DNA from: a virus
Lineage: Duplodnaviria > Heunggongvirae > Uroviricota > Caudoviricetes
Length of the DNA stretch: 20,195 nucleotides
Direction: 5' to 3' (one strand)
IMG/VR virus record: IMGVR_UViG_2529293241_000014
The notes below the pieces were generated by a model. It was not told where the DNA came from, searched no databases, and worked only from the letters and a program-made list of their open reading frames with translations. Shown piece after piece: positions 453 through 20,195 of this stretch; the first letter of the stretch is position 1, and the number at the start of each line of letters is the position of its first letter. A program made the position numbers and the translations under genes.

Positions 453-2183
453 TCAGGCTACCTCAACTCTCTTTTCAATAGGGTCAAGGTTTTTCATCCC
501 GCCAAGATCTTCTGCCACCTGTTTGAGCATTGACCTTGTTGATGGCGCATCAATTTTTGCACCTGCAGGCATCGCCTTTTCAACATTGCGATAAAGCTGG
601 TCGCTTCGTTTCATCAGCGCAGACATTCTTCCATTGACCGTATCAATAAACTTGTCGCTCATACCAAGAGCATCTTTTGCACCGGAAACGCGATCAATTA
701 TCTCACCCGCGCCCTGTGCTAGCTGCCTGATTGCTTCATTTTCCTGCACCTGTAGAGCAGAACCCGCACGGGACTTGATTGCTTGCTCAACTGCCTTGTA
801 TTGCTCGTTCCCGGAAAAGTGTGAAGGGAGTAATGAATCAACATTAAGCCTTTCAGCAGACTCCAGAACTTCAGCCTGAGGATTGATATCTAGTTCATCA
901 AGCGATGAAGCGAGATTTGGCCTTTTTTGTGCTGCTACTGTGCGAACGACTTCCTCTGGGTTCTTCGTCGCAGGCGTCATTGGTACACCTTGTGCTACTC
1001 TTGCCTCTGCGGCATGAACCGCAGGATTTGTTGCTGCAGCGGCATCACCGGAGAATGGTGATGTTTCTGTTGGCGCAGTGGTCGCTCTCTGTGCAGATGT
1101 TTTATTGCCACTAATTATATTTGATGCACCACGAACACCACGGGTAACGCCATTTATCAGGCCATGCGTAGCAATGCTAAGTCCGGCATTAATAGCGGCA
1201 TTTTCGGCAAAATCACCCCGTTGATTCGCCGCGTCAGCGAGAGAACCAATGACCATGTTTCCAGCTACACCTGCTCCAGGAACAAGATAACCGCCTATTG
1301 ACTCTCCAGCTTGCGCGTAGGGGTCTGTCGGTCTGTCTACTGGACGATAAACATCATCCAATACTTTTGGCCCCCCAAGCCCCTGACTGATTGCATTAAT
1401 CAGACTTGCGCCACCCTGCAATACGTCAAATGGTATGTTTACCAGACCACGACCAGCCTGTTCTGCAATTTGCCCTGCACTTTGACCACCAGTGAGCCAA
1501 TCGCCAGCTTGTTGCATCAATGATGGTTCTTCCCGTGTTGGTGCATTATTGGCCTGATTAACTGTTTGTTGCTGAACAGGTTTCGGTGCGACAGAACTTA
1601 CGGGTTGAGGTGGCTGCTGACTGGCTGCCTGCTGCTCAATCTGAGCAAATGGATTATTTGGGTCTGACTGCACACCTGATGCCGATACTTGTTCGGATGA
1701 CTGTACTTCCAGTTGTGCAAACGGGTTGTTAGGGTCTTGCTGAGGATGTACCTTTGCAGAGGTGGCGCGCTGTTCGACTGTTGAGTCTGTCACCGGGTCA
1801 CCAGCCCATTGAGCAAAGCGATCATCAACGTAACCGCGGCCTTCAGGTCCTGGCGTATATTCACCACGCTTTGCCTTCATAACGTTGCCGGGACCGTCGT
1901 GATAAGCCTGAAGAGAGTCACGCCAGTTACCAAACTGCTGGTACATCTTTGCCAGATAGCGCGCGCCAGCGTCAGCCTGATATTCGGGGTTTTGCATTTG
2001 CTCATCGGTATAACCCATATCACGCCATGTCCCAGGCATGACCTGAGTCAATCCTACAGCCCCGGCGGAGCTTACTGCGGCAGGGTTGTAAGAAGACTCC
2101 TTGGCACCCAGTGCAGTCATCAACCCTTCTGGCACACCGTAACGTGCGCCAGCCTGCTCTAACAAATCACGGTAATTAGCCAT
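453..2183 (-). CDS. Virion internal/ejection protein in the P22 gp16 position, with an N-terminal soluble lytic transglycosylase (SLT) domain
   Basis: 576-aa ORF, last gene of the structural operon, directly abutting the gp20-like gene. The N-terminus carries family-1 lytic transglycosylase motifs ([27 protein letters not shown]; AYHDGPGN). The central region is Q/P-rich with a tandem DPNNPFAQ repeat. Confidence 0.8.
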
Positions 2184-3515
2184 TTACTGCCCCAAAGATG
2201 GAAGATATCCGTAGCGATTAATGAAGTCGATTGACAGCTCGGGGTGCTGCTTCAGGTAATCTATAGAAGCCTGAGGCGCTTCCACTCGCTTGATACCGTT
2301 TTGCTGAACGTACTTACCAACCGCCTCATTACGCTTCTGGTTGAGCGTGTTCAGGATGACGCCAGCGTTGCGACGAAAGGACTCCTCGCTCTGCGAGTTC
2401 TGCAGCGAACCAACAGCCTGGTCGAGCTTTTTGCCCTCGGCATCAGAAAGTGCGCCCATGCCTCGCATGGCCTGAACCGCTGTCAGGTATGCTTGTGATT
2501 TAAAGGTATCAAGTCGTGCCTGAGTGTCTGCAGCCTGTGAGCCTGGAACGTTGGGGATTACTCCACGTAAGCCTGTAATGCTCTTAAGTGAAGGAGAACT
2601 AACGATATCGTTCAGAGTGAACATGCTGGTTGTGAGGGTGTTGATGCCGTCTTTGTAGCCATCATTTAGCGCTTGCTGCTTCTGCTGCAACTGCTGGTTG
2701 TTGGCTGCTATGCGGCTCTGTATTTCCTGGCGCTTCAGGTCGTTAGTTTCTGCTGATAGCATCCGGTCAAGGCGCTTATTTTCGTTGTTAATGCGGTTTG
2801 TTTCTGCGTCCAGATTAATGCGCTGCTGACCTAAATTCGCCTGGATATCTTGTCCGCGCATTGTGATTGCCTGATTCCGAGCGGCGGTTTGCGAATCCAG
2901 ATCCTGACCGCGCATGGTAACCTGGCGACCCTGCATTTTATCCTGTAGGTCAAAGTATTTTTCGGGCCCGAGACTGTTCATCCCCAGGTGATCGACAAAT
3001 TCGCCGAACTGCCGCGGGTTCTGTTGGTACATCTGAGCGACGTCATGAGGATTAACGCCAACACGAGCTAACTCACCGGCGTTGTTTTGCAGCCATGATT
3101 GCATTGCTTCTGGAGACGATGACGCAAGGCGTGCGCCAGCCGCTAAGGTGCCGATAGAATTACGCTGCTCTTCATCAATGAATCCCATGCCTTTACGAAC
3201 GGATTCAATCTGGTCTGGATATTGAGTAGCCAACTGACGCAAAGCACCGCGATCACCAGACGCATAAGCATTAGCGTACGCCTGCTGAAATTCTTTCTGC
3301 CGCTGAGCCTGCTTTTCCTGCTGAAAAACACCCGCAATACCTGAAAGACCTTGCAAAGCAGTCAGCCCAACATTGTTAGCGCCTGAACGCTCAATATCAT
3401 TGTTCTGCCTGATAAGCTGAAGCGTATTGCCGATGTCATTTACGCTCGGAGCGTTTGAGTTGACGCCGCCGATACCAGCCAACAATCCGCCGTTTGTTCC
3501 TTGCCAAGTAGCCAT
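2184..3515 (-). CDS. P22 gp20-like ejection (E) protein
   Basis: 443-aa ORF in the conserved position between the gp7-like and gp16-like genes. Q/N-rich coiled-coil-like composition typical of P22-like ejection proteins. Operon-packed, with stop adjacent to the next start. Confidence 0.8.
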   Translation of the reverse strand: MATWQGTNGGLLAGIGGVNSNAPSVNDIGNTLQLIRQNNDIERSGANNVGLTALQGLSGIAGVFQQEKQAQRQKEFQQAYANAYASGDRGALRQLATQYPDQIESVRKGMGFIDEEQRNSIGTLAAGARLASSSPEAMQSWLQNNAGELARVGVNPHDVAQMYQQNPRQFGEFVDHLGMNSLGPEKYFDLQDKMQGRQVTMRGQDLDSQTAARNQAITMRGQDIQANLGQQRINLDAETNRINNENKRLDRMLSAETNDLKRQEIQSRIAANNQQLQQKQQALNDGYKDGINTLTTSMFTLNDIVSSPSLKSITGLRGVIPNVPGSQAADTQARLDTFKSQAYLTAVQAMRGMGALSDAEGKKLDQAVGSLQNSQSEESFRRNAGVILNTLNQKRNEAVGKYVQQNGIKRVEAPQASIDYLKQHPELSIDFINRYGYLPSLGQ

Positions 3516-3524
3516 GATTCCCCC

Positions 3525-4217
3525 TTAAAACAACGAGCCAAGCAATCCGATACCAGCACCAATACCAGCGCCCCAAGGCGTTGATGTTCCCAAAAGGCTG
3601 GCAAGACCTGCACCGGCAATCGCACCAGACGTGCCACCGCTAATTGCAGTCTGAAGACTTGATGGTTTATTGGCATTAGCAGCGGCAAGAGCTGCGCTTT
3701 GCTGTGCAATGCTGCTCATGTTGTTGGCGTACGTCTGCCCGGCGTTTGCCTGACCTTGCAGCGCACCAAGCCCAACGTTTGCCAGATTGTTGTAATTGCT
3801 CATCTGATTTGATAACCAAGACTGACCGAGTGTCGGCGCGATCGTAGCCAGTTGATTGCTTGTGGCTGTCGAACCAAGTCCACCCGTCGCCTCCGCAGCA
3901 GCAAGACTCTGGTAACGCGCCTGCCCTGCAAGGTCTTTATACTGCTTAGAGTTGTAATACTGATTAAGTGCCTGCCCCTGACCTTCTAAACTGGAAAGGT
4001 TCTGAAGCTGGTTAACATACTGCTCCGCAAGAGGCGTGAACGGAGCAAGGTTTTTCATGATCGTCTGCCACTGCTGATTTTGCAGGTCTGCAGCATACTT
4101 CTGGGCTTCTGCTGCATACTTTGCGCTTTTATCAGAACTGCCACCTTTCCCGCCTTTTTCAGGGCAATAAGGTTCCTCGCCGCGCAGTTTTCTGCCCAGC
4201 TTAAATGCATATAACAT
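3525..4217 (-). CDS. P22 gp7-like ejection (E) protein
   Basis: 230-aa ORF; N-terminus MLYAFKLGRKLRGEEPYCPEKGGKGG... and a Gly/Ala-rich C-terminus resemble P22 gp7 as recalled. Conserved gene order. Confidence 0.8.
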   Translation of the reverse strand: MLYAFKLGRKLRGEEPYCPEKGGKGGSSDKSAKYAAEAQKYAADLQNQQWQTIMKNLAPFTPLAEQYVNQLQNLSSLEGQGQALNQYYNSKQYKDLAGQARYQSLAAAEATGGLGSTATSNQLATIAPTLGQSWLSNQMSNYNNLANVGLGALQGQANAGQTYANNMSSIAQQSAALAAANANKPSSLQTAISGGTSGAIAGAGLASLLGTSTPWGAGIGAGIGLLGSLF

Positions 4218-4219
4218 GG

Positions 4220-4678
4220 CTATCTCCCGTGATTCAGGAAGTCGATTAGTTCTTCGCGTGTGGCGCTGTAAAAAGTCACGTCATCCACGCCTTTGAAGTA
4301 TTTCTTGATGGTTCCTACACGCTTAAGGCCAATCATTGCGCAGTACATCTGACCGTGTCGGAATTTGCGTGCAGCGAACGATGTTACGCACTGAACGGTG
4401 GTGTTAGTCAGAATGTATCGCCAGAACGCCAGCCCAATTTCCTTGCTGAAGCCGCGAATCTCTGGCAGGTACATGGCGTGGCAATCTAATGTCAGCGGCT
4501 GAATCTCCTGATAGTAAACAATGCCGCCAAACTGACCGTGCACGTTCACCTCAAAGTAACGGCATTCAGGTTTGTAGTCGTATCCATCACCGTTGTTGCT
4601 CCCGGCGATAATGTCAGGGTGATTTCCGACTGCTTCTATCAGGTCGATGTTTCGCGTTGGTTTGAATGTAATCATCAC
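4220..4678 (-). CDS. P22 gp14-like virion assembly protein
   Basis: 152-aa ORF immediately downstream of the tail needle gene with an ATGA start/stop overlap. Position and size match the gp14 slot of P22-like phages; the sequence-level match is from memory only. Confidence 0.65.
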
Positions 4679-5523
4679 TGCTCCGCGATTATCTTGATGG
4701 TTGTGGCAGTAAACGCCGCACCATTCGACTGAATGGTTAACGTACTGCCATTTGTGGCAAGAAAGCCGTCTTTATCCACGCTGAAGAACGTAGCTAACAG
4801 GATGTTGTCGGTTGTTGTCGCCGCATTACGACTGCTGACCAGTGTGTCAGGAACAGAGCCGGAAAAGGTTAGCTGCATTGACCTGTTGGCGGTTCCGCTG
4901 GGCCACGTGCCGACAATCGACAACTTGAAGAGCAGGGTTTTGTTCTCGTTGAACACAACCATCTTGTTGTTAACGGTGTCGAAGAATGGTGCCAACGAGC
5001 CGGATGACGGTGTGAGCGTTTTCAGCAGGCTAACAAGGTTGGTCGGCGCTGTCGGGATGGTTACAGATACACCAGAGTAAACAACCTCTGACTTCTTGCG
5101 TGTGGTTGCATACTCCAGAGCATCGATGCGCGTTTCATGGTCTGAAACCTGCGACTCCAGCGACTGAACTCTTGTGTCAAGCGACGAAATATCGCTTTCA
5201 TTCTGAGCTATTCGTGTTTCATGGTCCTGAAGAGTTGATTCTGCCTGTCTGATTCGCTCCTCATGATTAACAAGCGTTGCTTCCGCAGCAGAAATTCGCT
5301 GCTCATGGTCAGCGAGAATCACATCCTGCTCATCGTTCCTGACCTGTGCATCATAAGCGCCCTGTCCGGCCTCGTTGGCTTTGTTAGCCACGTTACCAAC
5401 ATCAGTGCCCTGTGCGATAACGTAAAGCAGATACGACTGCGAGAAGATATTGCGTGGAAGGACTGATGTATCGAGCCGCGTAGCTTGGATGATTACCGGC
5501 ACATTGAGATTCGAATCAGCCAT
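4675..5523 (-). CDS. Tail needle (P22 gp26 family) with C-terminal knob domain (Sf6/HK620 type)
   Basis: 282-aa ORF. N-terminus [43 protein letters not shown] is the conserved gp26 N-terminal domain. It is followed by four DHExRI-like coiled-coil repeats and about 140 aa of non-coiled C-terminal domain, unlike the 233-aa knobless P22 needle. Confidence 0.85.
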
Positions 5524-6941
5524 TACTCAATCCTTATCTGAGCGCCAGACAGAGTGACAGGTGACTTCGTGATAACGCGCAATTTGAAGCCGACATTTTT
5601 CCTGATGCGCCCTACTCGCTTCCACAAAACACGCTTGTCGTAAACGAACGGTTCATTCTGCTCAATCATCTGCTCACGCCCGTAATTGATGCAGTCAGTG
5701 GTTGCAGAGAGAAAAAGGCGGTCGGCGTACTGCGCAACGCCAGTTGACGATTCAACCTCAAGGTCGAACACTCTGGCGTTATCCGCTTTGAAGAGTGGAG
5801 TAAACAGCAGGTGTTCCTGTTGCTTGTCGTACTGGCTGCTGATATCGAATTGCAGTTTCCCGGTAACAGATTCCAGCTTATCGCCGCACGTTATCTGATT
5901 GCCTTCGTAAACGAAGTCGATAGCGCGGTACACATCGTCATACAGACCTGTTTTCAGCACACACCATTGTGGGCCATTGGCGATTGAAGATGCGTCGTAC
6001 ACGAGGACGTGACGCGGAAGGTGGATAATCAGCAACTCATGAGCATCAAATCGCAGCGATTCCATCACACCATCAGCCAGTTCATCAGCAGTGTAGGAGC
6101 GGAGGATTTTCTCAATGCTCGCGCTGGCAATTGGTGACACCTGACCGGAGTCGATGATATACACAGACGGCGCACCCGTTGCCGGATTGCTGATAAACGC
6201 ATACGAATCAGCGAATGGCGTTTTGCAGTAAGTTCCGGCAATGCCTTTCTGCACCATCAGCGATGGTTGTGCAACATACAAAGCGGCACCAACGGTGGTT
6301 GCGCCAGTCAGGGAGAAATATTCAATAGTCGATGAACCAAAGCAGACGATGAAGTCTCGCCATGTCCCGATACCGATGATGCCGTCAGGCTGAGACTCGG
6401 CACGATATTGTGCGCTGTAACGGTCAGGATGAGATTCGTCTTCAAGGTCAGTGATAAACCATGAATCAGTTCCGTCTTTTGACCACGCATAACGCCCACG
6501 TAAGCGCGTAATGTCGCGAACTGAACCTAACTCATACTGAGTGAATCCACTGTCTGTAGGCCAGTTTGAGACGGTTTTGACCGTGCCATCATAGCGATAC
6601 TCGACCAGTTGACCATTAACGCCTACCGCCTGTGATGTCCGACCATGCGCCATTGATACACGACCACTTCCGGCAACATCACCGACTTCACTTTCTCCTT
6701 TGTACAGCTTGCCGCCACACACGCGATAAACAGCATTCTGCGCCATGTTGTACTCGACGCCGCGAGATACACCGTTCACGTCAGAACGTTTGGCAATGCC
6801 CGGGAATGAGCGAAGATATCCGCTGCTGTTCAGGATTTCTTTGGGTGTAGCCAGCATATTCACTGGCAGATAGTCGATATAGTCGGCGTTTCGGAAGTCT
6901 TTGCCGACACCTTTCATAAGCGGAAGTTGCTGAATAGGCAT
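5523..6941 (-). CDS. P22 gp10-like tail accessory (hub) protein
   Basis: 472-aa ORF, the same length as P22 gp10, in the conserved position between the gp4-like and needle genes. Confidence 0.85.
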
Positions 6942-7441
6942 TATTCGCTCCCGTTATCGCAAGGTTCCTTTCGGTGGAAGTAATTCCAACCATTCCACTT
7001 CGCCAACTGGTTACCACTACCAACAGGCATACGGTTTGGATAACCGGACTTACATTTAGCTGCTTTTGCCCTGTCCATTGCAGACAGTTTGACGAGTCGC
7101 TCTTTCCCGTATCTGGCAGTGGTTATAAGTTTTGCAGACGCTTCCAGCGCATAATCTGGAGCAATTCGGCAGGCAAGGTTGAAAATGACGGCATTGATAG
7201 CGTTATTTGATAAACCGTGCTCATCGCCCGGATCCGGAGCAACATCTGCATCAGCAAAAATGTAGCCAACGTTGATACCAGGTGACGCATCACCGCCAAG
7301 CCATTCAGCCATCATCATTTCAAGGTCGTTGACGCCGTCTTCCATAGACTGCGGTTCGACATCGGTTAACGTGGCATTTGATGCAACACCGAGCTTACGT
7401 AATGCCGCAAGAACTAAATCACCCTTCGTTGTCAGGTTCAT
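6941..7441 (-). CDS. P22 gp4-like tail adaptor/head-completion protein
   Basis: The track ORF runs to 7510, but the sequence from the internal Met ([33 protein letters not shown]...) aligns with the P22 gp4 N-terminus as recalled and gives 166 aa. The start at 7441 is therefore preferred. Confidence 0.8.
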
Positions 7442-7649
7442 CTGCTGCCGCCTTAGGTTTTCGACCAGGCTTTTTACGCTGTTTTTCTTCTGGCTCTGGC
7501 TCTGCAACATCCTTCAAAAGGTCATCAGGATGTGAAAACCAGCCAGCATCCAGATATTCCTGAAGCTCTTCGGCTTTCACGATTTCAAAGTCGTAGCCAA
7601 CGCCTTTCCACTTCTTCATGTCGCCATGACGAAAGATCATGTGTGTCAT
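7419..7649 (-). CDS. Small hypothetical virion-module protein (76 aa) between coat and gp4-like genes
   Basis: ORF from ATG at 7649 (GGAGA RBS 5 nt upstream) reading [38 protein letters not shown]..., with a charged tail [28 protein letters not shown]22 has no gene here; Sf6-type phages have a small gene 6 in this slot. Confidence 0.5.
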
Positions 7650-7693
7650 GCTTGTCTCCAGATAAAAACGGGAGCCGAAGCTCCCTCTGGTTA

Positions 7694-8989
7694 TCACGCG
7701 GTCTGGTTAGGCAGACCAACACCAATTGCCTCTGGTCGTACAGCACATGCTGAATACCACACAGCAATACGGCACTTACCAGACAGAGTGTTGATATCAC
7801 CCTGCGTTGCGAAGATGCCGTTAACACCAATACCTGGAATGCTGAAGGAAGACGTTTTCATGCCAGCAAACAGTTCATGGGTTACCGGGATCGGCTGAGA
7901 CAGCAGGCGGATTGAGTCATCAGCCCAGAACACGTTAGCGGTGGTTGTTGCCACGTTCAGAACGTTTACCGGAGTGGTATCAGCAAGAGAGGTGTTTACG
8001 TTAGCGTAAGCCTTCTCTTCTTTTGTCAGTGACGCGTCATCCAGCGCAATCGGCTTCGGCGTGATTTCGATGTGAGTACCATCGATCACACGGGTGATTG
8101 AGAAAGTCGCGTCATCAGTCAGCACATTCTTCGCCATCTGAGACAGGAACTTCACACCAATGAAGCTGATTTTGTCGCCGCGCTTAAATCCGGTGGTGGA
8201 GGATACGGTCACCGTTGCAACACGGTTGTCGACGTTCTCTTTGTTACCATCGGTATCAAGGGTGTATGCCTGCGGCTTAAACTTCTGCGCACCAGAAACA
8301 GTTACACCAGTCGCGGTTGACTTGGTAACTGCCGGAAGTTTCGGTGAGCGAAGAATTTCATCAAAGCCAGCAATCTGACGCTGAATAGTACCGTTTCGAT
8401 ATGCTTCTTCAGGAACGCGCCCGAAGATGTCACCATCTACCAGGTTGCGGCCTGCTTTGCGGTAATCGTCAGGGTTCAGGAAGTAACTGATGCCCATGTC
8501 GCGGTTTAGCTCACGGGAGAACATCAGTCGCTCTGCATCAGACACAAAATCCCAGCCAGGCAGGCCAGTCGATGGACCAATTGCGCGGGTATCGTGAACA
8601 ACAAGCGAGCCCATTTCAGTTGCCTGTTTGGCAATCGCTGACTCAATGTTATTCGCCAGTTTTTTGGCGGATGCCTGGATGCGGCGACGGTAAGAACGCT
8701 CATCACGCAGGTCATCTGCACGAAGCTCGAAGAAATCGTTATCCGGATCGCCCATGTTGCACTTCACGGAGAGTTCCAGAATCCCGGTTGCGTTGCCAGT
8801 TAAATCCCAGCCAGTCTGGGTTGGCGCTTCCTGCTCAACAGGCATCCACACGGTGTTGCTTGAACGCTGCATGGATTCTGCCGGAGGGGGGTATTTTGTC
8901 ACTTTTGACGCCATTGGCGTCAGGTTCTGGACGGTTCCGATGATTTCATCCAGAGCATACGTGACCAGTTGACCTTCATTTAATGCCAT
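7694..8989 (-). CDS. Major capsid (coat) protein, P22 gp5 family
   Basis: 431-aa [23 protein letters not shown]... ending ...[14 protein letters not shown]; collinear with P22 coat protein (430 aa) along its length as recalled. Confidence 0.95.
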
Positions 8990-9900
8990 TATCGAATTCC
9001 TTTATTCAGTTGCGCCTTGAGCTTGCGGTACGTCTCTACATCCCCTTTGTTTGCTGCCGCCTCCATCTGCTTTTCAATCGCAGAGATATTTGCAGCAACA
9101 GCATGTCCCTGAATGGGTTCATCAGGTAACGGGGCTTCTGAAACAGGCTTGGCTCGAGGCTTGAGAGTTAAACGTTCTGACAGTCGAGTGAGTTCAATCA
9201 GCGCGGATTGCCCGTCCATCGCCAGCAACTGGCGTGTTTTCTCAGGATTAGCACCAAGGTGATACATGAGAGCGGCGGATTTCTCCGGGAAGAGGCGCAT
9301 GATGTCGGCACCGACTGCTGGCGGCACCAGTTGCATGAATGCATCCTCTTTCTCCTGATAGTCAGGGATATTGAGCTTTTCCGCTGCCTCGTAGTGCTTA
9401 CGGGCCGCCTCGACGTATTGCGCTGATTGCTGGGTGAACTCCTGAGTTTTGCGACCCTGCTCGGCGACAGCCTGGCTTCGTGCGTCCATAGCCTTGATCT
9501 GCCATTCACTGTTTGCCTGCTGGAAGGCAGCCAGTGCGCGGCTCTGGTCATAGTCGTACTTAGCCAGTGCATCTTCGGAAAGATAATCGTTAGGGTCTGG
9601 TTGTTTTGGTAACTCAGGGTTCACCCGCAGGTGCTCCGGCAACTCTCCACGCTTAACCGCTTCCATCTGCTGCTCAAGCTCACGCTGGCGTTTGCGTTCG
9701 ATGCGGCGACGGGCAAATTCAGCATTAGTTGCCGGGTCTTGTTTTGGTTTCTCATCGTCTTTCCGGACAATCTCAAAGCCTTCTTCCTGACCTGCGCTGT
9801 CGTTGGCATTATCGACAACTAAGCCATCAGCAGATGCCGCTGCATGATTGCCGGGCAGGGTTAATTCTTCAGAAGCCTGAATGTCGGTGGTTTGGTCCAT
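8989..9900 (-). CDS. Scaffolding protein, P22 gp8 family
   Basis: 303-aa ORF, the same length as P22 gp8. Conserved blocks include [30 protein letters not shown] and the C-terminal coat-binding helix-turn-helix [19 protein letters not shown]. Confidence 0.92.
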
Positions 9901-9913
9901 GATTAACTCTCTC

Positions 9914-12079
9914 TTATTGAGGTGTCTCGGCTACTCCGCCGGAGGGGATTTGAACTTGACGCATAAGATTCGCGAAATCCATGCGTTGTGAATGAGTCTG
10001 GTCTGCATCTTTAAGAAGCAGCTCAGCGTTAGCACGAGCATCTTTGCTGCGCTGTTGCTGGAATTGACCTACGAGCCTGAGGTACTCACGCAGTTCTGCC
10101 TGCTTGTCGAGGTCCATATTGTTGAATATTTCTGCAATCTTCGCGGCGTTGAGTTGGTTTTGGGCTTCAACCTTGGCAGCTTCAACCTGAATCTGCGCCT
10201 GTTGGTTCTCTGCCTTGAGCAATTCAGCCTGACCTTGCAGAAGGATACCCTGCGCCTGAATTTGCTCTGCTGATGGCTGCTGCGGCTGTTGTTGTGCCTG
10301 CTGCACCATCTCCATCTCTTCAGGTGTTTCTGGTTTCTTCAGCCCCATCATCACCAGTTGCTTGTTCGCGTACTCTCGCATCATCTCGACGCCTTTACCG
10401 TCAAGCAGCGTGAAGTATTGCAGCATCAGCATCTGGAACTCTGGAGTACCTTGCGGAACCTTGGTGAGCAACTCCTGAATCTCTGCGCGGTTCTGTTCCT
10501 TCATACTCTGGAAGGATGGCCCAACGTCTGTATAGCACTCATATCGACCGCGAATGTCGTTGAGTGTGACCACATTGCCGGACTGGTAATCGACAACTTG
10601 CGCATAGAGTTGAACGTCTTTCTCGCTTCCATCTTCAAGTGTCAGCGTTACATGACGAGGAACGTCATAAATATCGTTGACCATTGAGGCATAAATCTCG
10701 CCATCACGTCGCATTGCGGTAGCCAGGTTATCCTGAAACACGTATGTCTCAAGGTCTGCCCGCATGTTCAGTTGATTGACGGTATCAAAAGCGACCTGAC
10801 CATTTGCCGCCTGCGCATCCACGCCAAGACTAGCCACTTCTTTCACTGCGTTGGTGGCAGCCTCAAGCATGTAAGCGTTGGCTTGCGGCACTTCAGGGTT
10901 TTCCATGTAGGAGATTGGACCAATCGGCAGGTCGTTACCGTTTTCATCAGTCCTGTTCTGCAGATAGTACGGATAGTCATCATTTCCGCCGTACATGTAT
11001 TCGTAGCCTTCGATTTGCTCAGGGAAGAAGGTCGGTTTCTTCTTCGGTGACCGAGCAACAATATCGGCGTTGAACGACATAATCATGTTACGAAGGCGTT
11101 GACCGTCTTTCGTCAGCCTTACCACACCCTCGTAGCACTCCTTGTCACCAGCGAATGACCATTCGCCATACACTGGAACGATTGGAATATGCTCTCCGGC
11201 TATCTTCTCGCGGTCTTTCAGTATCTGCGTACAGGTGATGATCGACTTATACACACGCCGACGCTTCACCTTGCGCTCTGCTACCTTAATGAATCCACGA
11301 TTAGCCAGGTCGTCGATGACGTCTTTGATATCCTGCTGGTAATAGCTGACCGGCTCACCTGTCAGCGGGTCGCGGTAGATGAAGACCTTCTCCTTCTCCT
11401 CTTCTACCTCGTAATACTCAGCGACGTAGACGACATCATTCGACACCCACGGGAATAGCCATGTATCGTTAGGATTCTGGAAAGATGGCAGGGTATCCGG
11501 GTCAATACCGTAATCCTCTGCGAACTCTTTCCAGCCATTGCGCGACAAGGCGTTAATCACCGTGCAGTGCTTAGCGTCGCTCTTATCCATCTGCTTGCTG
11601 TTGGCGTCCCATATGACGTGTGAGCAGGCTTCATGGATTGGCAGGCGTCGGATTACCTGATTGTTGCTTGTTGGATCGTTGTCTTCGTACTGCGTGACCA
11701 GACGCCATGCACCAACGCCTGACTCTATCTGCTCACGAACGCCAACGTTAACGGCAATCTTTGCCGTGTTATGGCGCATATCAGTACGATACATCCCCAT
11801 CAATACATCGGCTGCATCAGGATTAGCGCCGTCTTTGGGTCGGAAGAGAACGTCGACAGGGTTCCGGCGCATCTCTGCGACCAGTTTCCTGACCTCCGGG
11901 CGAACAACATCGAATTGTCCGCGATATTGCAGGGTAGTGTAGTTTGATAGCCAGTCATCCCATTGCGACACTCGGCTAAAATACAGGTCATTTGTCGCCT
12001 CGGTTCTGGCTTCATCGCTCGCCATCCAGTCTGCGTCAAACTTACACAGAATGGAATTGAGTCTGTTTTCGTCGGCCAT
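9914..12079 (-). CDS. Portal protein, P22 gp1 family
   Basis: 721-aa [21 protein letters not shown]...; long collinear similarity to the P22 portal, including the Q-rich C-terminal barrel region ending SGGVAETPQ. Confidence 0.95.
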
Positions 12080-13120
12080 TTAAGTTCTCCGTGCGATGGG
12101 CCTGATTGGGGCTGGTATCTTTTTCTCTTTTGGTTTTTTGATGTCGCGCATCATTTTTGCGAAGCGGCGCATCATGTATGCATAGCGAACGGCGGATAGC
12201 ACGTCGTCGTTAAGCTTGACGATTTTCCCGTTTTCATCACGGTGATAGAGGCGGAACTCCTCAAAGAATGGCTCACAGGTATTGAATACTTTGAAGCGAC
12301 CATCGAGCATCATGTCGCGCAATTCAGTGATGCCTGGCTCAACAGCGTTACCGCCATCAGGCCATGTCGCATGCTCCTGCAACATCATAAATCCAGCGTC
12401 TGCATACTGCCCTTTGAGCTGCTCACCGCCGCCCTTCTCGTGCTGGTTTCCATCATGAGGCCATGCGGTTGGCACTTTATGCGCCCATGATTTAACGGCT
12501 CCCCACGCCTGAACGGCTGTTTTTTCTTTCGCCTTCCACACGCGTGAAACGTAGATTGTGTCTGCCTCCTTATCCCACCAAAGCTGAACTTGCGCCTGTG
12601 GGTGATCCCATCCGAAATCCATCCCGCCAATTACGTAGAAGTGATCAGGACACTCGAACGGCTGACACTTAATCGTCTCTTCCGGTATCTGGAAGATTCG
12701 ACCACTACCCATCGTAGGAATACCGCGAGCACGCGCCTCTCTCTCATGCTCGGGATATGATGCGATGATTTGCTCTTTCTGCTCGTCGGTATAGTGCTCA
12801 GCGTCATAGATGGTCATGTTGACCACTTTCTGCGACTTGCTGGGGTTCTTCAGGAACTTGGTAACAACGTCAGACATCCCCATCAGCGGGGTAAACGTCA
12901 GAATTGAGAATTGCCCGTATTTGTTGGTACGGGTAAGACCTTCGCCATAAATGCTGTATGGTGGCTCTTCGTCAAACCACACGCCGTGGATTGTGTCACC
13001 CTGCCAGCGAGCACGGCCTTGCGAGTATGGCTTGAAGTAGCAGATTGAAATGCCATCTTCAACGCCATCAGCCGTGTGATGCTTAACCAGAAGGTGATCA
13101 ACAAGGTTCGGAAAGAAAGG
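12080..13120 (-). pseudogene. Large terminase subunit, 5'-truncated by IS911 (3' about 346 codons retained)
   Basis: The minus-strand frame is open from the IS911 end at 13120 through the stop at 12080. The retained part begins ...PFFPNLVDHLLVKHH..., includes a Walker-B-like VWFDEEP and the C-terminal nuclease region (GGMDFGWDHP...). No Walker A or start codon is present; the frame runs straight into the IS911 IRL. Confidence 0.85.
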
Positions 13121-13192
13121 TGAAGTGGCACACTGAATTTGGCCACCTGAACAGAGGTGATATGCTCACCTCAGAACAACACAGGTGCTCCA

Positions 13193-14361
<1,169 letters not shown>

Positions 14362-14369
14362 CCACTTCA

Positions 14370-14765
14370 AATACACTGAGCGATTACGCTGTATTGGTCC
14401 CTGAGAGACTTGAGGCAATCTTGGACCGAGCCGCTCAACGCGCAGGTCATGAGGATATTAGTGAGCTATTGGGCTGCACTGTATGCAGCTATGCGGGCGA
14501 TGATACAGGTATCTATCTCCTGCCTAAGCGGTTCGCTTCTATCTCTTTCAGGTCAACTAAAGACGCTAAGACGGTAGATGTCAAAGTGACCCGAAATAGT
14601 AACACTGCTGGGTATGACCTTGAGTTAATCAGTGTGGTCGATGTGTTGGCTACTGGTTCCGTTAAGGTGAAAGCAGGTGAGTTTGACGTTGAGAAAGACG
14701 CCTCTTTCCCGTTGATACATGTTATTCGGTTTACTACCCCCAGAGTAACTATAAACCCTGAGTGA
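14370..14765 (+). pseudogene. Orphan 3' fragment (about 132 codons) of an unknown gene, fused to the IS911 copy 1 IRR
   Basis: The frame is open from inside the IS through to the TGA at 14763-14765 and contains no ATG. Protein-like composition (...LGCTVCSYAGDDTGIYLLPKRF...KVTRNSNTAGYDLELISVVDVLATGSVKVKAGEFDVEKD...). I do not recognise the family. Confidence 0.35.
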
Positions 14766-14782
14766 ACATAAGGAGTACATCC

Positions 14783-14854
14783 ATGAGCTTACAGGAGTTG
14801 TTTGAGCTCGTCCTCTGTGTCCACTTGGTCTGCCAGATGCTCTACAGGGAGTGA
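14783..14854 (+). CDS. Candidate 23-aa small ORF (MSLQELFELVLCVHLVCQMLYRE)
   Basis: ATG at 14783 lies 7 nt after a consensus AAGGAG (14770-14775), immediately downstream of the fragment's stop. The product is short and hydrophobic. Support is RBS geometry only. Confidence 0.2.
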   Translation: MSLQELFELVLCVHLVCQMLYRE

Positions 14855-15287
14855 TAGATAATAACAATCAGCAGTATGCCCGCAATAGCTATTGCTCTGG
14901 TGCTTACAGGTCTTCACTTTGCGGTCGGTGGGGGCTAGTGGCGGTAGGTTATGACCTTGTATTAAAAAAATCTCACAAAAATCTCTGTAGGTATCTAATA
15001 GACAAAGGTCGGTGCCTCTCCCCCCTTGGCCCCTTTCAAGTCTGGACGATTGGGGCCACTGTCTTAAAGTTAGGACTTCGGTTACTCGTTCCAGAGTCAC
15101 GAGAGGACTTGACCAGAGATAAATTAATGTGTAACCATAACTGTAACCACAAGGATTCATCATCCTTTAGGAAGCAAATGGTTAGCGGCTGATTATCTTC
15201 GATACCTCGATTCCCGCTGCCCGCTCCAGTTAGAGTCTTTCAGTCTGCGATGATGGGAAATCCCGGAGTGACTGAAAGACGTTTAAG

Positions 15288-15359
15288 TTATGAATGATCG
15301 CTTTTTTTGCAAAATTGCTGTGCAGAAATACTAACCTTCGGGCAGGCGATCATTCATAA
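15288..15359 (+). promoter_or_regulatory. Perfect 14-bp inverted repeat (TTATGAATGATCGC ... GCGATCATTCATAA) with 44-nt spacer, upstream of the lysis cassette
   Basis: Arms at 15288-15301 and 15346-15359 are exact reverse complements. The spacer contains TTGCAA-N16-TACTAA, a weak sigma70-like pair. The position fits the late-promoter/leader region of a lambdoid late operon. Confidence 0.4.
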
Positions 15360-15433
15360 GCACTCTGCTTTTATTCCGATTAACTGTGGGTGGTTTGTTG
15401 GATAGAGTGCTTCCCTTACTGTATATATCGTTT

Positions 15434-15459
15434 CGCCCGCTTTTGCGGGTTTTTCTTTT
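15434..15459 (+). terminator. Rho-independent terminator-like hairpin (candidate tR'-like site), 60 nt upstream of the holin
   Basis: CGCCCGC-TTTT-GCGGGT followed by TTTTCTTTT: GC-rich stem, 4-nt loop and a U-run on the plus strand. Confidence 0.55.
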
Positions 15460-15519
15460 CAAATCCCTTTCATTTCTCAGTGTAAAACTACGCCATCCGT
15501 TATTTGCGGAGGTGAGGCT

Positions 15520-15735
15520 ATGAAATCCATGGACAAAATTTCAACGGGCATTGCCTACGGCACCTCCTCAGGCAGTGCTGGCTACTGGTTTTTACAGTGG
15601 CTTGATCAGGTCAGTCCGTCACAGTGGGCTGCGATTGGTGTACTGGGGAGTCTGGTTCTGGGCTTCCTGACTTATCTGACAAATCTGTACTTCAAAATCA
15701 GAGAAGACAAGCGTAAGGCTGCACGGGGAGAGTAA
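15520..15735 (+). CDS. S: Pinholin, phage 21 S21 type (class II holin with dual-start MKSM motif)
   Basis: 71 aa, [71 protein letters not shown]; near-identical to S21 as recalled. GGAGG RBS at 15507-15511. Met1/Met4 dual start is consistent with holin/antiholin products. Confidence 0.95.
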
Positions 15736-15739
15736 TTCA

Positions 15740-16054
15740 ATGACACAAAAATATGAACTGATTGTGAAAGGGATCCGCAATTTTGAGAATAAAGTTACGG
15801 TAACTTTAGCGTTACGGGACAAAAAACGCTTTGACGGTGAAATTTTTGACCTGGACATCTCGCTGGACCGTGTTGAAGGTGCCGCGCTGGAGTTTTATGA
15901 GGCAGCAGCCAGAAGGAGCATCAGACAGGTCTTCCTGGATGTTGCTGCCGGGTTATGTGAAGGGGACGAGCTGTTGCCAGAAACGCGCCCCTGTTCAGAG
16001 GCGCGGTATACCATAAAAATTAACAGTTCTGATAACTCGATTACGGGTTGTTAG
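15740..16054 (+). CDS. Conserved hypothetical protein of lambdoid lysis cassettes (YdfR-like; DUF1327 by recollection)
   Basis: 104-aa ORF starting 5 nt after the holin stop and ending 55 nt before the endolysin start. The same holin-ORF-endolysin arrangement is recalled from the E. coli K-12 Qin prophage (essQ-ydfR-rrrQ). Hydrophilic, no TM segment. Confidence 0.75.
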   Translation: MTQKYELIVKGIRNFENKVTVTLALRDKKRFDGEIFDLDISLDRVEGAALEFYEAAARRSIRQVFLDVAAGLCEGDELLPETRPCSEARYTIKINSSDNSITGC

Positions 16055-16109
16055 CTTTTTGCAGTTAGCTTTCCAGTATCTTTCATTGGTAGCATCCTGA
16101 TAAATATCC

Positions 16110-16643
16110 ATGAGCGCAAAAATCAAATACGGCCTGTCAGCTGCTGTTCTGGCGCTGATTGCTGCAGGCGCGTCTGCTCCTCAAATACTTGACCAGTTTC
16201 TGGATGAAAAAGAGGGTAACCACACTACGGCATACCGCGATGGTTCCGGTATATGGACCATCTGTCGTGGTGCCACAATGGTGGATGGTAAGCCCGTCAT
16301 ACCGGGAATGAAGCTGTCGAAGGAAAAATGCGACCAGGTTAACGCTATTGAACGTGATAAGGCGCTGGCATGGGTGGAGCGCAATATTAAAGTACCACTG
16401 ACCGAACCACAGAAAGCGGGTATAGCGTCATTTTGTCCCTATAACATTGGCCCAGGTAAGTGTTTCCCGTCGACGTTTTATAAGCGGCTGAATGCCGGTG
16501 ATCGTAAGGGCGCATGCGAGGCGATTCGCTGGTGGATAAAAGATGGTGGGCGCGATTGCCGCATACGTTCAAATAACTGCTATGGACAGGTTATTCGTCG
16601 TGACCAGGAAAGCGCATTAGCCTGTTGGGGGATAGATCAGTGA
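16110..16643 (+). CDS. R: SAR (signal-anchor-release) endolysin, T4-lysozyme-like muramidase
   Basis: 177 aa with a weakly hydrophobic Ala/Gly-rich N-terminal segment (YGLSAAVLALIAAGASAP) and the catalytic E-8aa-D-5aa-T triad (EGNHTTAYRDGSGIWT). Pairs naturally with a pinholin. Confidence 0.9.
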   Translation: MSAKIKYGLSAAVLALIAAGASAPQILDQFLDEKEGNHTTAYRDGSGIWTICRGATMVDGKPVIPGMKLSKEKCDQVNAIERDKALAWVERNIKVPLTEPQKAGIASFCPYNIGPGKCFPSTFYKRLNAGDRKGACEAIRWWIKDGGRDCRIRSNNCYGQVIRRDQESALACWGIDQ

Positions 16644-16648
16644 GCTGA

Positions 16649-17107
16649 GTCGCCGCGATTATTTATGCTCTGGTTATCTGCATCATCGTCTGCCTGTCGT
16701 GGGCGGTCAATCATTACCGTGATAACGCCATCGCCTACAAAGAACAGCGTGATAAAAAAGTCAGTGAGCTGAAGCTGGCGACCGCCACCATTACTGACAT
16801 GCAGCAACGCCAGCGTGCTGCTGATGTACTCGATGCTAAATACACGAAGGAGTTGGCTGATGCGAAAGCTGAAAATGATGCTCTTCGGCGCAAGCTTGAT
16901 AATGGTGGCCGGGTGCTCGTCAAAGGAAAATGCTCTGTGCCATCCTCAGCCGAAACCTCCAGCGCCTCCGGCATGGGCAATGATGCCACCGTCGAACTCT
17001 CTCCAGTTGCTGGACGAAACGTTCTCGGTATCCGGGACGGAATCATCAGAGACCAGACAGCACTGAGAACGCTTCAGGAATATATCAGGACGCAATGCCT
17101 TCGATGA
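16649..17107 (+). CDS. Rz: Rz-like i-spanin (lambda Rz family); canonical start disrupted, start uncertain
   Basis: Frame encodes (V)[35 protein letters not shown]...[20 protein letters not shown]...TQCLR, collinear with lambda Rz. The lambda-type start overlapping the endolysin stop reads GTG AGC TGA (16640-16648), an in-frame stop at codon 3. The next in-frame ATG is at 16799, downstream of the TM segment. Confidence 0.6.
16860..17066 (+). CDS. Rz1: Rz1-like o-spanin (outer-membrane lipoprotein) embedded in the +1 frame of Rz
   Basis: [46 protein letters not shown]...: signal peptide, VAGC lipobox and proline-rich mature part, fully nested inside Rz as in lambda. Confidence 0.75.
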
Positions 17108-17304: not shown

Positions 17305-17331
17305 ATTGCAACAAAGGTAAAGATGAAGTGG

Positions 17332-18500
<1,169 letters not shown>

Positions 18501-18577
18501 TGGAGCACCTGTGTTGTTCTGAGGTGAGCATATCACCTCTGTTCAGGTGGCCAAATTCAGTGTGCCACTTCAAGACG

Positions 18578-18865
18578 ATGGATGAAGAATATCGTAAAGA
18601 CCTGCAACTGTGGTTTGGTCTTACGCATGCGTCGTTCTGCGTGATGCCGCGAGTATTCATGGAGGCTATGCCTCCAGAATGGCAAGAGAAGATGGCTCAG
18701 TTGCTTTTTGAGTATAGCGACACGATCAAAACGGATGTCTGCGGAGTTCACAGCTGTTTTGTTACTGCCAAAGACGGCAACAACCGCTTTATGAGGATGC
18801 CAGAAGATATTCTGAACTATCGTCATCCTCGACGTGAATTCATCGAATCATTTCTGAAGAAGTAG
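18578..18865 (+). CDS. Hypothetical phage protein (95 aa) downstream of the lysis cassette
   Basis: ATG at 18578 begins MDEEYRKDLQLWFGLTHASFCVMPRVFMEAMPPEWQEKMAQLLFEYSDTIKTDVCGVHSCFVTAKDGNNRFMRMPEDILNYRHPRREFIESFLKK. Same orientation as the lysis genes. Its likely native RBS (AAAGG at 17314-17318) is now separated from the ATG by the IS911 copy 2 insertion. Confidence 0.5.
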   Translation: MDEEYRKDLQLWFGLTHASFCVMPRVFMEAMPPEWQEKMAQLLFEYSDTIKTDVCGVHSCFVTAKDGNNRFMRMPEDILNYRHPRREFIESFLKK

Positions 18866-18921
18866 CCATTACAAAGCCTATCTACGGGTGGGTTTGATAA
18901 TGGCTTATACTGGATTTGCCC

Positions 18922-19827
18922 CTATATTTCCAGACATCTGTTATCACTTAACCCATTACAAGCCCGCTGCCGCAGATATTCCCGTGGCGAGCGATAACCC
19001 AGCGCACTATGCGGATGCCATTCGTTATAATGCTCGAACGCCTCTGCAAGGTTCTTTGCTGCCGTTAACCCGTCTGGTTTGGGCATGATACTGATGTAGT
19101 CACGCTTTATCGTTTTCACGAAGCTCTCTGCTATTCCGTTACTCTCCGGACTCCGCACCGCCGTGTTCTTCGGTTCAAGTCCCAACATCCGGGCGAACTG
19201 GCGTGTTTCATTAGCCCGGTAGCATGAACCATTATCCGTCAGCCACTCCACTGGAGACGACGGAAGATCGTTGCCGAAGCGGCGTTCCACCGCTCCCAGC
19301 ATGACGTCCTGTACTGTTTCACTGTTGAAGCCGCCGGTAGTCCCCGCCCAGTGCAGTGCCTCACGATCACAGCAGTCCAGCGCGAACGTGACACGCAGTC
19401 TCTCTCCGTTATCACAGCAGAACTCGAACCCGTCAGAGCACCATCGCTGATTGCTTTCTTTCACGGCCACTCTGCCTGTATGTGCCCGTTTCGATGGCGG
19501 TACAGCAGGTTTTCGCTCAAGCAACAGCGCATTCTGGCGCATGAGCCGGTAAACACGTTTGGCATTGATCGCAGGCATACCATCAAGTTCTGCCTGTCTG
19601 CGAAGCAGCGCCCATACCCGACGATAACCATACGTGGGCAGCTCTCCGATAACATGGTGTATACGGAGAAGCACATCCGTATCATCAGTGTGACGACTGC
19701 GGCGGCCATCCATCCAGTCATCGGTTCGTCTGAGAATGACGTGCAACTGCGCACGCGACACCCGGAGACAACGGCTGACTAAGCTTACTCCCCATCCCCG
19801 GGCAATAAGGGCGCGTGCGCTATCCAC
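18922..19827 (-). CDS. insD: IS2 InsD (OrfB, DDE transposase domain)
   Basis: 301-aa [41 protein letters not shown]... matching IS2 InsD as recalled; overlaps the 3' end of insC as in IS2. Confidence 0.95.
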
Positions 19828-20150
19828 TTTTTTGCCCGTCCATATTCAACGGCTTCTTTGAGGAGTTCATTTTTCATCGTTTTCTTGCCGAGCAGGCGCT
19901 GGAGTTCTTTAATCTGCTTCATGGCGGCAGCAAGTTCAGAGGCAGGAACAACCTGTTCTCCGGCGGCCACAGCAGTAAGACTTCCTTCCTGGTATTGCTT
20001 ACGCCAGAGAAATAACTGGCTGGCTGCTACACCATGTTGCCGGGCAACGAGGGAGACCGTCATCCCCGGTTCAAAGCTCTGCTGAACAATTGCGATCTTT
20101 TCCTGTGTGGTACGCCGTCTGCGTTTCTCCGGCCCTAAGACATCAATAAT
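19785..20150 (-). CDS. insC: IS2 InsC (OrfA) with the initiator codon position reading ATT instead of ATG
   Basis: Protein [55 protein letters not shown]... is IS2 InsC. The codon at 20148-20150 (plus strand AAT) gives ATT where canonical IS2 has ATG, by my recollection. An E-to-K difference (KTMKNELL) is also present. Confidence 0.8.
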
Positions 20151-20195
20151 CTGTTCTCCAATGACAAGTCTAAAAACTAGTATTAAGACTATCAC

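Follow-up and report, generated by a model that had tools for sequence, protein, structure and literature searches.

A probable decayed end of a small tRNA-Gly-integrating island, carrying a capsid-like gene fragment, upstream of a prophage holin gene

Features of the locus

We analysed a 20,195-nucleotide (nt) stretch of viral DNA (IMG/VR record IMGVR_UViG_2529293241_000014; hereafter the window), and in particular its segment 14370-15519, which lies between a copy of the insertion sequence (IS) IS911 and the holin gene of a lambdoid lysis cassette. On the plus strand, this segment contains the 3' third of a capsid-like pseudogene (14370-14765), the right (P') arm of an integrative island (14766-15206) with one small hydrophobic open reading frame (ORF; 14783-14854), the 22-nt core of a right attachment site (attR; 15207-15228), and a stretch of native prophage DNA that ends directly before the holin gene (15229-15519). 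A first-pass annotation made from the letters alone had described the same segment as an orphan gene fragment followed by about 750 bp unusually poor in genes for a phage. The poverty in genes holds, as no gene in 14766-15519 is supported beyond the tiny ORF and no known gene was found to match on either strand, while the idea of a phage oddity does not, the interval being a composite of island arm, attR and prophage trailer. As detailed below, segment 14370-15519 is very probably the decayed right end of a small integrative island together with the adjacent prophage sequence.

The capsid-like gene fragment

The frame 14370-14765 starts directly after IS911 and consists of 131 codons plus a stop codon (14763-14765), without a single methionine, in agreement with the earlier description of a frame lacking ATG after the right inverted repeat of IS911. 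In a megablast search of complete E. coli genomes, 14369-15229 is 89.6% identical, with indels, to a stretch of E. coli 21AR0133 (record L001) that comprises the 3' end of a hypothetical coding sequence of 373 amino acids (aa) and ~420 bp beyond it. Specifically, the fragment corresponds to residues 249-372 of this intact protein (L001 7258-8379), with 120 of 124 aa identical, and an extra C (+1 frameshift) near its end alters the last codons from FTAPE-stop to FTTPRVTINPE-stop. Comparison with a farther relative (L006, 83% nt identity) gives 43 synonymous and 14 non-synonymous codon differences, which indicates a genuine gene that has lost its 5' end. The suspicion that the frame is real coding sequence, based on its protein-like composition, was therefore well founded.

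The capsid-like protein has 49 close relatives in Enterobacterales and relatives of ~35% identity in many Pseudomonas species. Sequence searches of Pfam, PHROGs, NCBIfam, PADLOC and PDB assigned no family to the fragment or to its full-length homologue, and the query together with 39 homologues had no match to a curated capsid family of Pfam, PHROG or NCBIfam; the sole label seen was 'DUF4043', attached by UniRef to one homologue. We then modelled the full-length homologue with AlphaFold2 from a 39-sequence alignment (predicted local distance difference test, pLDDT, 69.4; predicted template modelling score, pTM, 0.66). With this model, Foldseek returned 118 PDB and 145 BFVD matches at E <= 1e-3, with template modelling (TM) scores of 0.3-0.45, and essentially all of the top 50 in each database are HK97-fold capsid or head proteins or encapsulins. 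The structural matches include proteins of phi29, T5 and HRP29, the T. maritima encapsulin, and the satellite-encoded capsid homologue Ccm of SaPIbov5 (7rwz_D). On the basis of this model we call the 373-aa protein HK97-fold capsid-like, a term that applies at the level of the fold only.

The same gene appears cut at another place in the protein family P0006 (268 aa, 13 member sequences), in which the capsid-like sequence stops at about residue 262 and continues as NNRSEM. The P0006 lineage suggests that the capsid-like gene has been disrupted repeatedly.

The attachment site in a prophage tRNA-Gly gene

The attR core (TCGATTCCCGCTGCCCGCTCCA; 15207-15228, plus strand) is the 3' end of a prophage tRNA-Gly(UCC) gene. 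Its sequence agrees at every position with the end of the tRNA-Gly(tcc) gene (L003 5948-6022) that, in intact lambdoid prophages, is the last of four clustered tRNA genes located between the antiterminator gene Q and the holin gene. From 15207 to 15519 the window is 100% identical to such prophages, and the phage homology starts at 15207, within the 3' end of the tRNA. The core carries the phage-type bases GCTG, as opposed to the chromosomal glyU-type TTCG found in the attR of 21AR0133. In the arrangement typical of an attR, the 22-nt tRNA end is preceded by an arm that is homologous to the ends of the islands in L001, L005, L008 and L010. The tRNA and non-coding RNA scans that the first-pass annotation had proposed did not reveal this remnant, which emerged from alignment: ARAGORN called no tRNA in the window, and Rfam gave no match at E <= 1 in 14300-15600 and none at the gathering threshold in the whole window.

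These data bear directly on the original suggestion that the fragment is the end of a late antiterminator or of another gene upstream of the late promoter, in which case the 750 bp would be an unusually empty late leader. The fragment does stand upstream of the holin gene, where Q and the promoter pR' stand in lambdoid phages. Nevertheless, the search for Q-antiterminator families led to no family match, the intact homologue being the 373-aa island protein, and there was likewise no match in Pfam or PHROG, nor any tblastn match of the fragment family in 50,697 phage records. All homologues of the fragment are instead the terminal gene of integrase-bearing islands of 6-7 kb at tRNA-Gly genes, and an HK97 capsid fold is predicted for the protein. 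Additionally, phage homology begins only inside the tRNA 3' end, and the Q gene of related prophages lies upstream of the tRNA cluster (missing here) and is unrelated to the fragment. An origin of the fragment as the prophage's own gene is thus hardly credible.

A complete counterpart of the junction exists in E. coli EPSSH018 (L005; NZ_CP125889), in which a related island (154035-160390) lies exactly between the prophage tRNA-Gly gene and the holin gene. Its left attachment site (attL) is a hybrid tRNA gene (L005 13660-13734), with the phage 5' part as far as ...GATTCCC and then the island-type TTCGCCCGCTCCA, while its attR consists of the island arm, ...TCCC, and then the phage-type GCTGCCCGCTCCA. 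Joined together, these two halves restore the intact phage tRNA, and this reciprocal pair of hybrids indicates integrase-mediated recombination with the crossover in the T-arm (TTCCC). The EPSSH018 island represents a subtype different from that of the window, the capsid-like proteins being 28% identical and the integrase and PD-T7-4 genes 75-79% identical at the DNA level. By searching IMG/VR with the hybrid-attL signature (GATGATGCGGGTTCGATTCCCTTCGCCCGCTCCA) we found two further prophage contigs. One (L049) carries a complete EPSSH018-type island in the same prophage tRNA gene; the other (L050) carries the attL end of the window's own island subtype, 92% identical to 21AR0133, with an integrase gene interrupted by an IS2; this IS2 and the one at the right end of the window are 99.5% identical. 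The exact attR junction pattern of the window had zero matches in IMG/VR. In EPSSH018, L049, L050 and the chromosomal islands, attL and attR together rebuild the original attachment site (attB), and the integrase gene lies by attL; the window contains no integrase gene, no attL and no 5' part of the tRNA. Since its attR is structured as that of EPSSH018, integration into the prophage tRNA is the best explanation of the junction.

Two other origins of the junction have to be weighed, namely homologous or illegitimate recombination (for example between a glyU attR and the prophage tRNA-Gly) and an assembly chimera. Both would be helped by the identical blocks of 13 and 10 nt in the two tRNA 3' halves and by a genome that is full of IS elements and clearly rearranged. 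Against them, the breakpoint falls exactly at the integrase crossover region, complete islands with precise reciprocal hybrid attL and attR occupy the same prophage tRNA in EPSSH018 and L049, and the two island subtypes use the same site in spite of their diverged capsid-like proteins. Furthermore, the exact chimeric ORF formed by IS911 and the fragment, with the same holin context, occurs on 24 contigs (27 index blocks), all <=3.2 kb and breaking at IS copies; the six listed occurrences stem from gut-metagenome assemblies in six ENA analyses, and gut-metagenome strains of PRJEB14847 are among the carriers. The presence of the chimeric ORF on 24 contigs means that the junction is not a one-off assembly artefact, and we consider an origin without an integrase very unlikely.

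Integration at this site has consequences for the tRNA operon itself. According to our reading, the hybrid tRNA-Gly(UCC) contains A7·C66 and C50·U64 mismatches, and ARAGORN still calls it a tRNA-Gly. The operon is parted from its trailer and terminator and then reads into the integrase gene of the island. Two stem mismatches and the separation of the operon from trailer and terminator could affect the host phage. In phage HK639 (L051 2412-2492), the same tRNA-Gly(UCC) follows an intact tRNA-Asn and begins only at the anticodon loop, its 3' two-thirds being all that is present; this 5'-truncated gene with its kept trailer indicates that the module decays from its 5' side in other phages too.

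The intact island family

The usual site of the islands is the chromosomal tRNA-Gly(CCC) gene (glyU). In 21AR0133, the island is 7.3 kb long, begins at the chromosomal tRNA-Gly(ccc), has the capsid-like gene as its last gene and is closed by a direct repeat of the last 16 nt of the tRNA; a second integrase island follows in tandem, with 90 bp between the island end and the second integrase gene. Islands of 6.3-7.3 kb with the same gene order occur at tRNA-Gly(ccc) in E. coli, Klebsiella and Pectobacterium. This order consists of a long tyrosine integrase gene (535-544 aa), PD-T7-4 (DUF4145), a Rha/Ant-like regulator, a small protein, DUF6971, the capsid-like gene, the small hydrophobic ORF, the right arm and attR, and it is conserved in a 6.6-kb Logan contig and in the islands of Klebsiella pneumoniae ATCC 13883 and Pectobacterium jejuense. 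With 493-544 aa in the family as a whole, the integrase is longer than usual, and its N-terminus is DUF6538-like. PADLOC identifies the DUF4145 gene as the defence gene PD-T7-4 (E = 7.5e-97), whose place after the integrase gene agrees with the remark, in PMC9519451, that PD-T7-4 'often overlaps an integrase gene'. The Pseudomonas relatives keep the integrase, DUF6971 and capsid-like genes; their gene behind the integrase is HEPN-like, and they lack a tRNA site. Apart from the capsid-like fragment, the window contains none of the island genes.

We searched the island proteins of L006, L005 (EPSSH018), L010 (Klebsiella) and L016 for AlpA, primase or replication, and terS domains and found none; cos-like DNA common to the island and its host prophage was not found either. 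The module by which phage satellites are recognised (AlpA with primase or replication genes; terS, cos or pac) was thus not recovered from these islands. A literature search yielded no account of DUF6971, of the island family or of integration into prophage-borne tRNA genes, which, given its limited coverage, is weak evidence of novelty; the island family is apparently undescribed.

Assemblies often contain relatives of the island on contigs of their own of ~6-7 kb, several Logan contigs of 6-7.6 kb among them. One such contig, ctg00053 of Pseudomonas sp. ANT_H4 (L035; 6428 bp), has a terminal overlap of 13 nt, and a second copy is present in the same assembly (L023). Among the ~6-kb contigs there were no long terminal overlaps that would mark a circle, the 13 nt of L035 being the only one. 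The stand-alone contigs may reflect excised circular forms.

The right arm of the island

The right arm (14766-15206, plus strand) is non-coding apart from the small ORF and is homologous to the end of the 21AR0133 island. An alignment of five islands shows the terminal ~130 bp of the arm to be conserved in E. coli, Klebsiella and Pectobacterium. Near the start of the arm lies the small hydrophobic ORF of 23 aa (MSLQELFELVLCVHLVCQMLYRE; 14783-14854, plus strand), with an AAGGAG ribosome-binding site upstream. The first-pass annotation had listed this ORF as a mere possibility with a strong ribosome-binding site, and it proves to be conserved and syntenic in the island family. Its length is equal in L001 (8414-8485) and L006 (6229-6300) despite diverged DNA, and analogous hydrophobic ORFs with a strong Shine-Dalgarno sequence occupy the same place in Klebsiella (21 aa; L010 10175-10240) and EPSSH018 (26 aa; L005 19757-19837). 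Overall, a hydrophobic ORF of 21-26 aa follows the capsid-like gene in every enterobacterial island examined, Pectobacterium excepted. These ORFs resemble type I toxin peptides (Ibs, ShoB), and no antitoxin RNA family was detected beside them.

The distal part of the arm contains a doubled TGTAACC(A) motif (15130-15149, plus strand), its two copies being 12 bp apart. This is the tandem GTAACCA repeat already seen at 15131-15149, with copies at 15131-15137 and 15143-15149, and TGTAACC occurs three times in total in the 20-kb window. In the left arms, the motif was seen in seven loci, including L049 and L050, and its distance from the core is constant in all six loci that have the integrase side: at +76 and +88 after the CCA in four, 1 nt closer in Pectobacterium, and as the +76 copy only in EPSSH018 (L005). 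In the right arms of five islands it lies at -99 and -87 from the core, in constant orientation. Thus, repeated putative arm-type sites flank the core in all islands with intact arms. Judging from this layout, which is classic for arm-type sites, the TGTAACC doublet probably represents the arm sites of the integrase.

Folding of the right arm gave no significant RNA structure (z = -1.9 and -0.6 for the two strands). A TTGACC...TAACCA promoter seen in the arm by eye was dropped, as the scan found no sigma-70-like site there. Four further ORFs can be drawn mechanically in 14766-15519 (14789-15163 on the minus strand, 14851-15192 on the plus strand, 15386-15523 and 15331-15462). We rejected them as genes, as they have no Pfam match and are broken by indels of lengths other than multiples of three in relatives. 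Related records contain no conserved-gene annotation of these ORFs; the trailer bears a short 'hypothetical protein' annotation, on the opposite strand, in only two phage records.

The IS911 junction

The left boundary of the fragment is IS911 copy 1 (13121-14369, plus strand; 1249 nt), which is 100% identical to the inverted copy 2 (17324-18572, minus strand). Both are assigned to IS911 by their size of ~1250 bp and their ends, TGAAGTGG...CCACTTCA. IS911, a member of the IS3 family, generates a target duplication of 3 bp. Copy 2 is a simple insertion downstream of the lysis genes, flanked by the duplication AGA/AGA. The flanks of copy 1 are AGG on the left and AAT on the right, that is, there is no target-site duplication, which marks copy 1 as a recombinant junction between unrelated DNA. 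Specifically, it bridges the orphan fragment on its right and, on its left, a 5'-truncated P22/Sf6-like terminase large-subunit gene, of which the 3' two-thirds remain (12080-13120, minus strand), the 5' end being cut by copy 1. The intact terminase gene is 1500 nt long in E. coli 2018-01-1CC, and the late regions of P22-like prophages are 95-97% identical to window 466-13123. The earlier proposal of a gene that lost its 5' end in an IS911-associated rearrangement, leaving the fragment as its 3' part, is therefore upheld.

Such a junction would be expected after recombination between two IS copies, by deletion or inversion, or after an IS-mediated deletion of adjacent DNA. An inversion between the two inverted IS911 copies of the window was considered and rejected for copy 2, which has kept its own AGA/AGA. 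The recombination partner of copy 1 accordingly lies outside the window or has been deleted. The arrangement of the window was absent from all complete E. coli genomes searched.

Origin of the segment

Together, our comparisons point to the following series of events. The integrase of an island of 6-7 kb would have recombined with the 3' half of a tRNA-Gly(UCC) gene, as comparison with the relatives indicates, and the target would have been the last tRNA of a cluster between Q/pR' and the holin gene of a lambdoid prophage. With a crossover in the T-arm (TTCCC), attR would keep the phage-type 3' end, while attL would become a hybrid tRNA with an island-borne 3' end. IS911 then took up its position in the capsid-like gene at codon 249, where the two now adjoin in the window. 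Subsequently, recombination between IS911 copies (deletion or inversion) may have joined the IS to the P22-like terminase gene, and the same event may have removed or displaced the integrase side, attL, the tRNA cluster and Q. What would be left behind is a dead gene fragment, the P' arm, the 22-nt attR core, and the structured trailer with its terminator before the holin gene. The remnant is inert and immobile, having no integrase, no attL, and a gene without start or promoter. The P22-like/lambdoid junction debris is accordingly a case of nested mobile-element decay, which is ordinary. What had looked like a puzzle in the window is thereby removed: the fragment and the 'empty' DNA are the debris of a nested element, not a new phage gene or regulatory region.

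Several observations weigh against this reconstruction or against parts of it. The integrase side, attL and the tRNA cluster are missing from the window, and integration is reconstructed from attR and from relatives. The exact crossover is uncertain, as CGA to the left of TTCCC matches the tRNA here and AGG or GGC stands in its place in other islands. The phage site is rarely occupied, in 1 of ~557 E. coli genomes carrying the tRNA-holin module, and the EPSSH018-type island is found at the chromosomal tRNA-Gly in ~30 genomes; such occupancy could mean off-target use of a look-alike attB, not an adapted strategy. The reciprocal IS911 junction, at which the 5' part of the capsid-like gene would meet the left end of IS911 (GAGTTGGGAAAT|TGAAGTGGCACAC), had zero matches in the JGI metagenomes, a result that is uninformative in that the window's own junction is likewise absent from this collection. 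The capsid fold comes from a model of medium confidence (pLDDT 69) with low TM-scores (0.3-0.45). As for a satellite nature of the island, replication, AlpA, terS and cos-like elements were undetected, and the island is absent from all sequenced phage genomes searched.

Nature of the intact island

We tentatively regard the intact island as a minimal phage satellite or hitcher, a reading that we place somewhat below even chances. Two hints favour it: the embedding in a late leader, co-oriented with late transcription, and the 6.4-kb contig with its 13-nt terminal overlap. Embedded in this way, the island would share the induction, replication and transcription of its host prophage.

The island could also, with the same origin of the segment, be an integrative defence island, in which DUF6971 and the HK97-fold protein would form an encapsulin-like compartment or a capsid-mimicking sensor or decoy beside PD-T7-4, and its landing in the prophage would be accidental, at a secondary attB. 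In the enterobacterial islands PD-T7-4 adjoins the integrase gene, and in Pseudomonas a HEPN-like gene occupies the same slot; encapsulins are among the best structural matches; packaging, replication and AlpA functions were not detected; and the phage site is rarely occupied. A small gene directly 5' of a shell gene also recalls the cargo-shell operons of encapsulins. On the other side, the island is a self-contained mobile unit found from Enterobacterales to Pseudomonas with a phage regulator of the Rha/antirepressor type, two diverged subtypes occupy the phage tRNA site, always co-oriented with late transcription, and the overlapping ends of the 6.4-kb stand-alone contig hint at a circular form, none of these points being decisive. 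We judge a pure defence island to be doubtful, though credible.

Extending the satellite reading, the islands could be undescribed minimal (~6-7 kb) satellites of Gammaproteobacteria with a long integrase, a swappable defence gene, DUF6971 and a divergent HK97-fold capsid of their own, which embed themselves in the late-leader tRNA-Gly gene of a helper and are induced, replicated and transcribed in cis; separately, the prophage trailer could be a new phage late-leader RNA. We put this extended proposal forward as possible, if unlikely.

The closest published concept to the intact island is that of helper-embedded phage-inducible chromosomal islands (HE-PICIs), satellites integrated within the late genes of their lambdoid helper (Tommasini, Mageeney & Williams 2023, PMC10111431). 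These elements are 10-20 kb long, with 14 target sites within late protein-coding genes (A, B, C, E and others; PMC10111431). Like HE-PICIs, the island is a small integrase-bearing element nested in the late region of a lambdoid prophage and co-oriented with late transcription. HE-PICIs often have a capsid gene of their own, as the island has a capsid-like gene, and the arms of their attachment site (attP) carry a doubled motif (TGTATTGC twice), as those of the island carry TGTAACC twice, 12 bp apart. Unlike HE-PICIs, the island integrates into a tRNA-Gly gene that a phage carries in its late leader, a chromosomal tRNA gene being its main site; at 6-7 kb it is about half their size, AlpA, primase and a replication zone were not detected in it, and its capsid-like protein lacks sequence similarity to any phage capsid.

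The island also shares features with other systems. As in tRNA-targeting islands and P4-like satellites, a tyrosine integrase inserts the element into the 3' half of a tRNA gene, which is duplicated at attR, and a variable anti-phage gene (here PD-T7-4 or the HEPN-like gene) directly follows the integrase gene. P4-like satellites have a defence hotspot by the integrase (Rousset et al. 2022, PMC9122126, as cited in PMC9519451). The P4 functions psu, sid, delta and the alpha primase were undetected in the island, however, and its integrase is unusually long. With SaPIbov5 and the capsid-forming PICIs (cf-PICIs), the island shares the possession of an HK97-fold protein by a satellite-type element, Ccm being among the structural matches; cf-PICIs carry a whole head and packaging module, whereas the island has one capsid-like gene plus DUF6971 and no sequence-level family. 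Finally, tailless temperate 'mini viral entities' of <10 kb, described as HK97-fold or encapsulin-like, have an integrase and an HK97-fold protein and no portal, tail or terminase (Aguilar et al. 2025, preprint, 10.1101/2025.06.18.659913), as does the island. Found in gut metagenomes, these entities have a mean size of 8.9 kb and possess genes for RepA/helicase and scaffold (10.1101/2025.06.18.659913); no link to tRNA-Gly or to embedding in prophages is reported for them.

Small and widespread islands thus pair a known defence gene, PD-T7-4, with a private, predicted HK97-fold capsid-like protein. The repeated use of a phage-borne tRNA gene as an attachment site by another mobile element represents a new route of nesting, helper-embedded satellites having hitherto been known only in late protein-coding genes. 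If true, the satellite reading would describe a tRNA-mediated version of the helper-embedded lifestyle.

The prophage trailer and the holin gene

The segment 15229-15519 (plus strand) is native prophage DNA, the trailer of the tRNA operon and part of the late leader. Phages vB_EcoS-689R5 and PhiR47_1 contain it with 100% identity, and related sequence is present in 536-557 of 5426 E. coli genomes. The trailer folds into three hairpins (15230-15286, 15289-15358 and 15359-15411, plus strand) with a minimum free energy of -80.9 kcal/mol (z = -6.07). Its 14-nt inverted repeat (15288-15301/15346-15359) and intrinsic terminator (15435-15450, plus strand; found by a terminator scan), both listed in the first-pass annotation, are present, and the ribosome-binding site of the holin gene follows the terminator. 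The late leader of phage HK639 (NC_016158 44527-44690) contains a 77%-identical trailer downstream of its 5'-truncated tRNA-Gly. In a six-sequence alignment including HK639, 92.9% of the cells are paired, and 11 pairs are changed on both sides, compared with 0-4 in slid controls. The region 15229-15450 may therefore be a tRNA-operon trailer, a small RNA (sRNA) or a late-leader cis-element, and the three-hairpin covarying structure, common to HK639, makes it a candidate for one of the latter two. External transcribed spacers at the 3' end of tRNA operons (3'ETS) can act as RNAs, as in the case of 3'ETS-leuZ. Like these, the trailer is a structured part of a transcript that separates the final tRNA of an operon from the terminator; it differs in being phage-borne, located in a late leader and known from sequence alone.

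The class II holin gene (15520-15735, plus strand) is the first gene of the prophage lysis cassette. It is annotated as a holin in homologous prophages, and identical contigs match Pfam Phage_holin_2_1.

The remainder of the window

Overall, the window is an IS patchwork, with the end of an IS3-family element (1-465), the two identical IS911 copies, and an IS2 that runs off the right edge (18910-20195). These elements bound parts of two prophages, namely P22-like morphogenesis genes (466-13120) and the lambdoid lysis cassette (15520-17107). An IS load of this kind is typical of Shigella-like genomes. An ORF of 95 aa (18578-18865), for which no family match was found, lies at the right-hand end of IS911 copy 2. 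The IS, with its duplication AGA, is inserted between the region of the ribosome-binding site and the ATG (18578) of this phage ORF and probably silences it.

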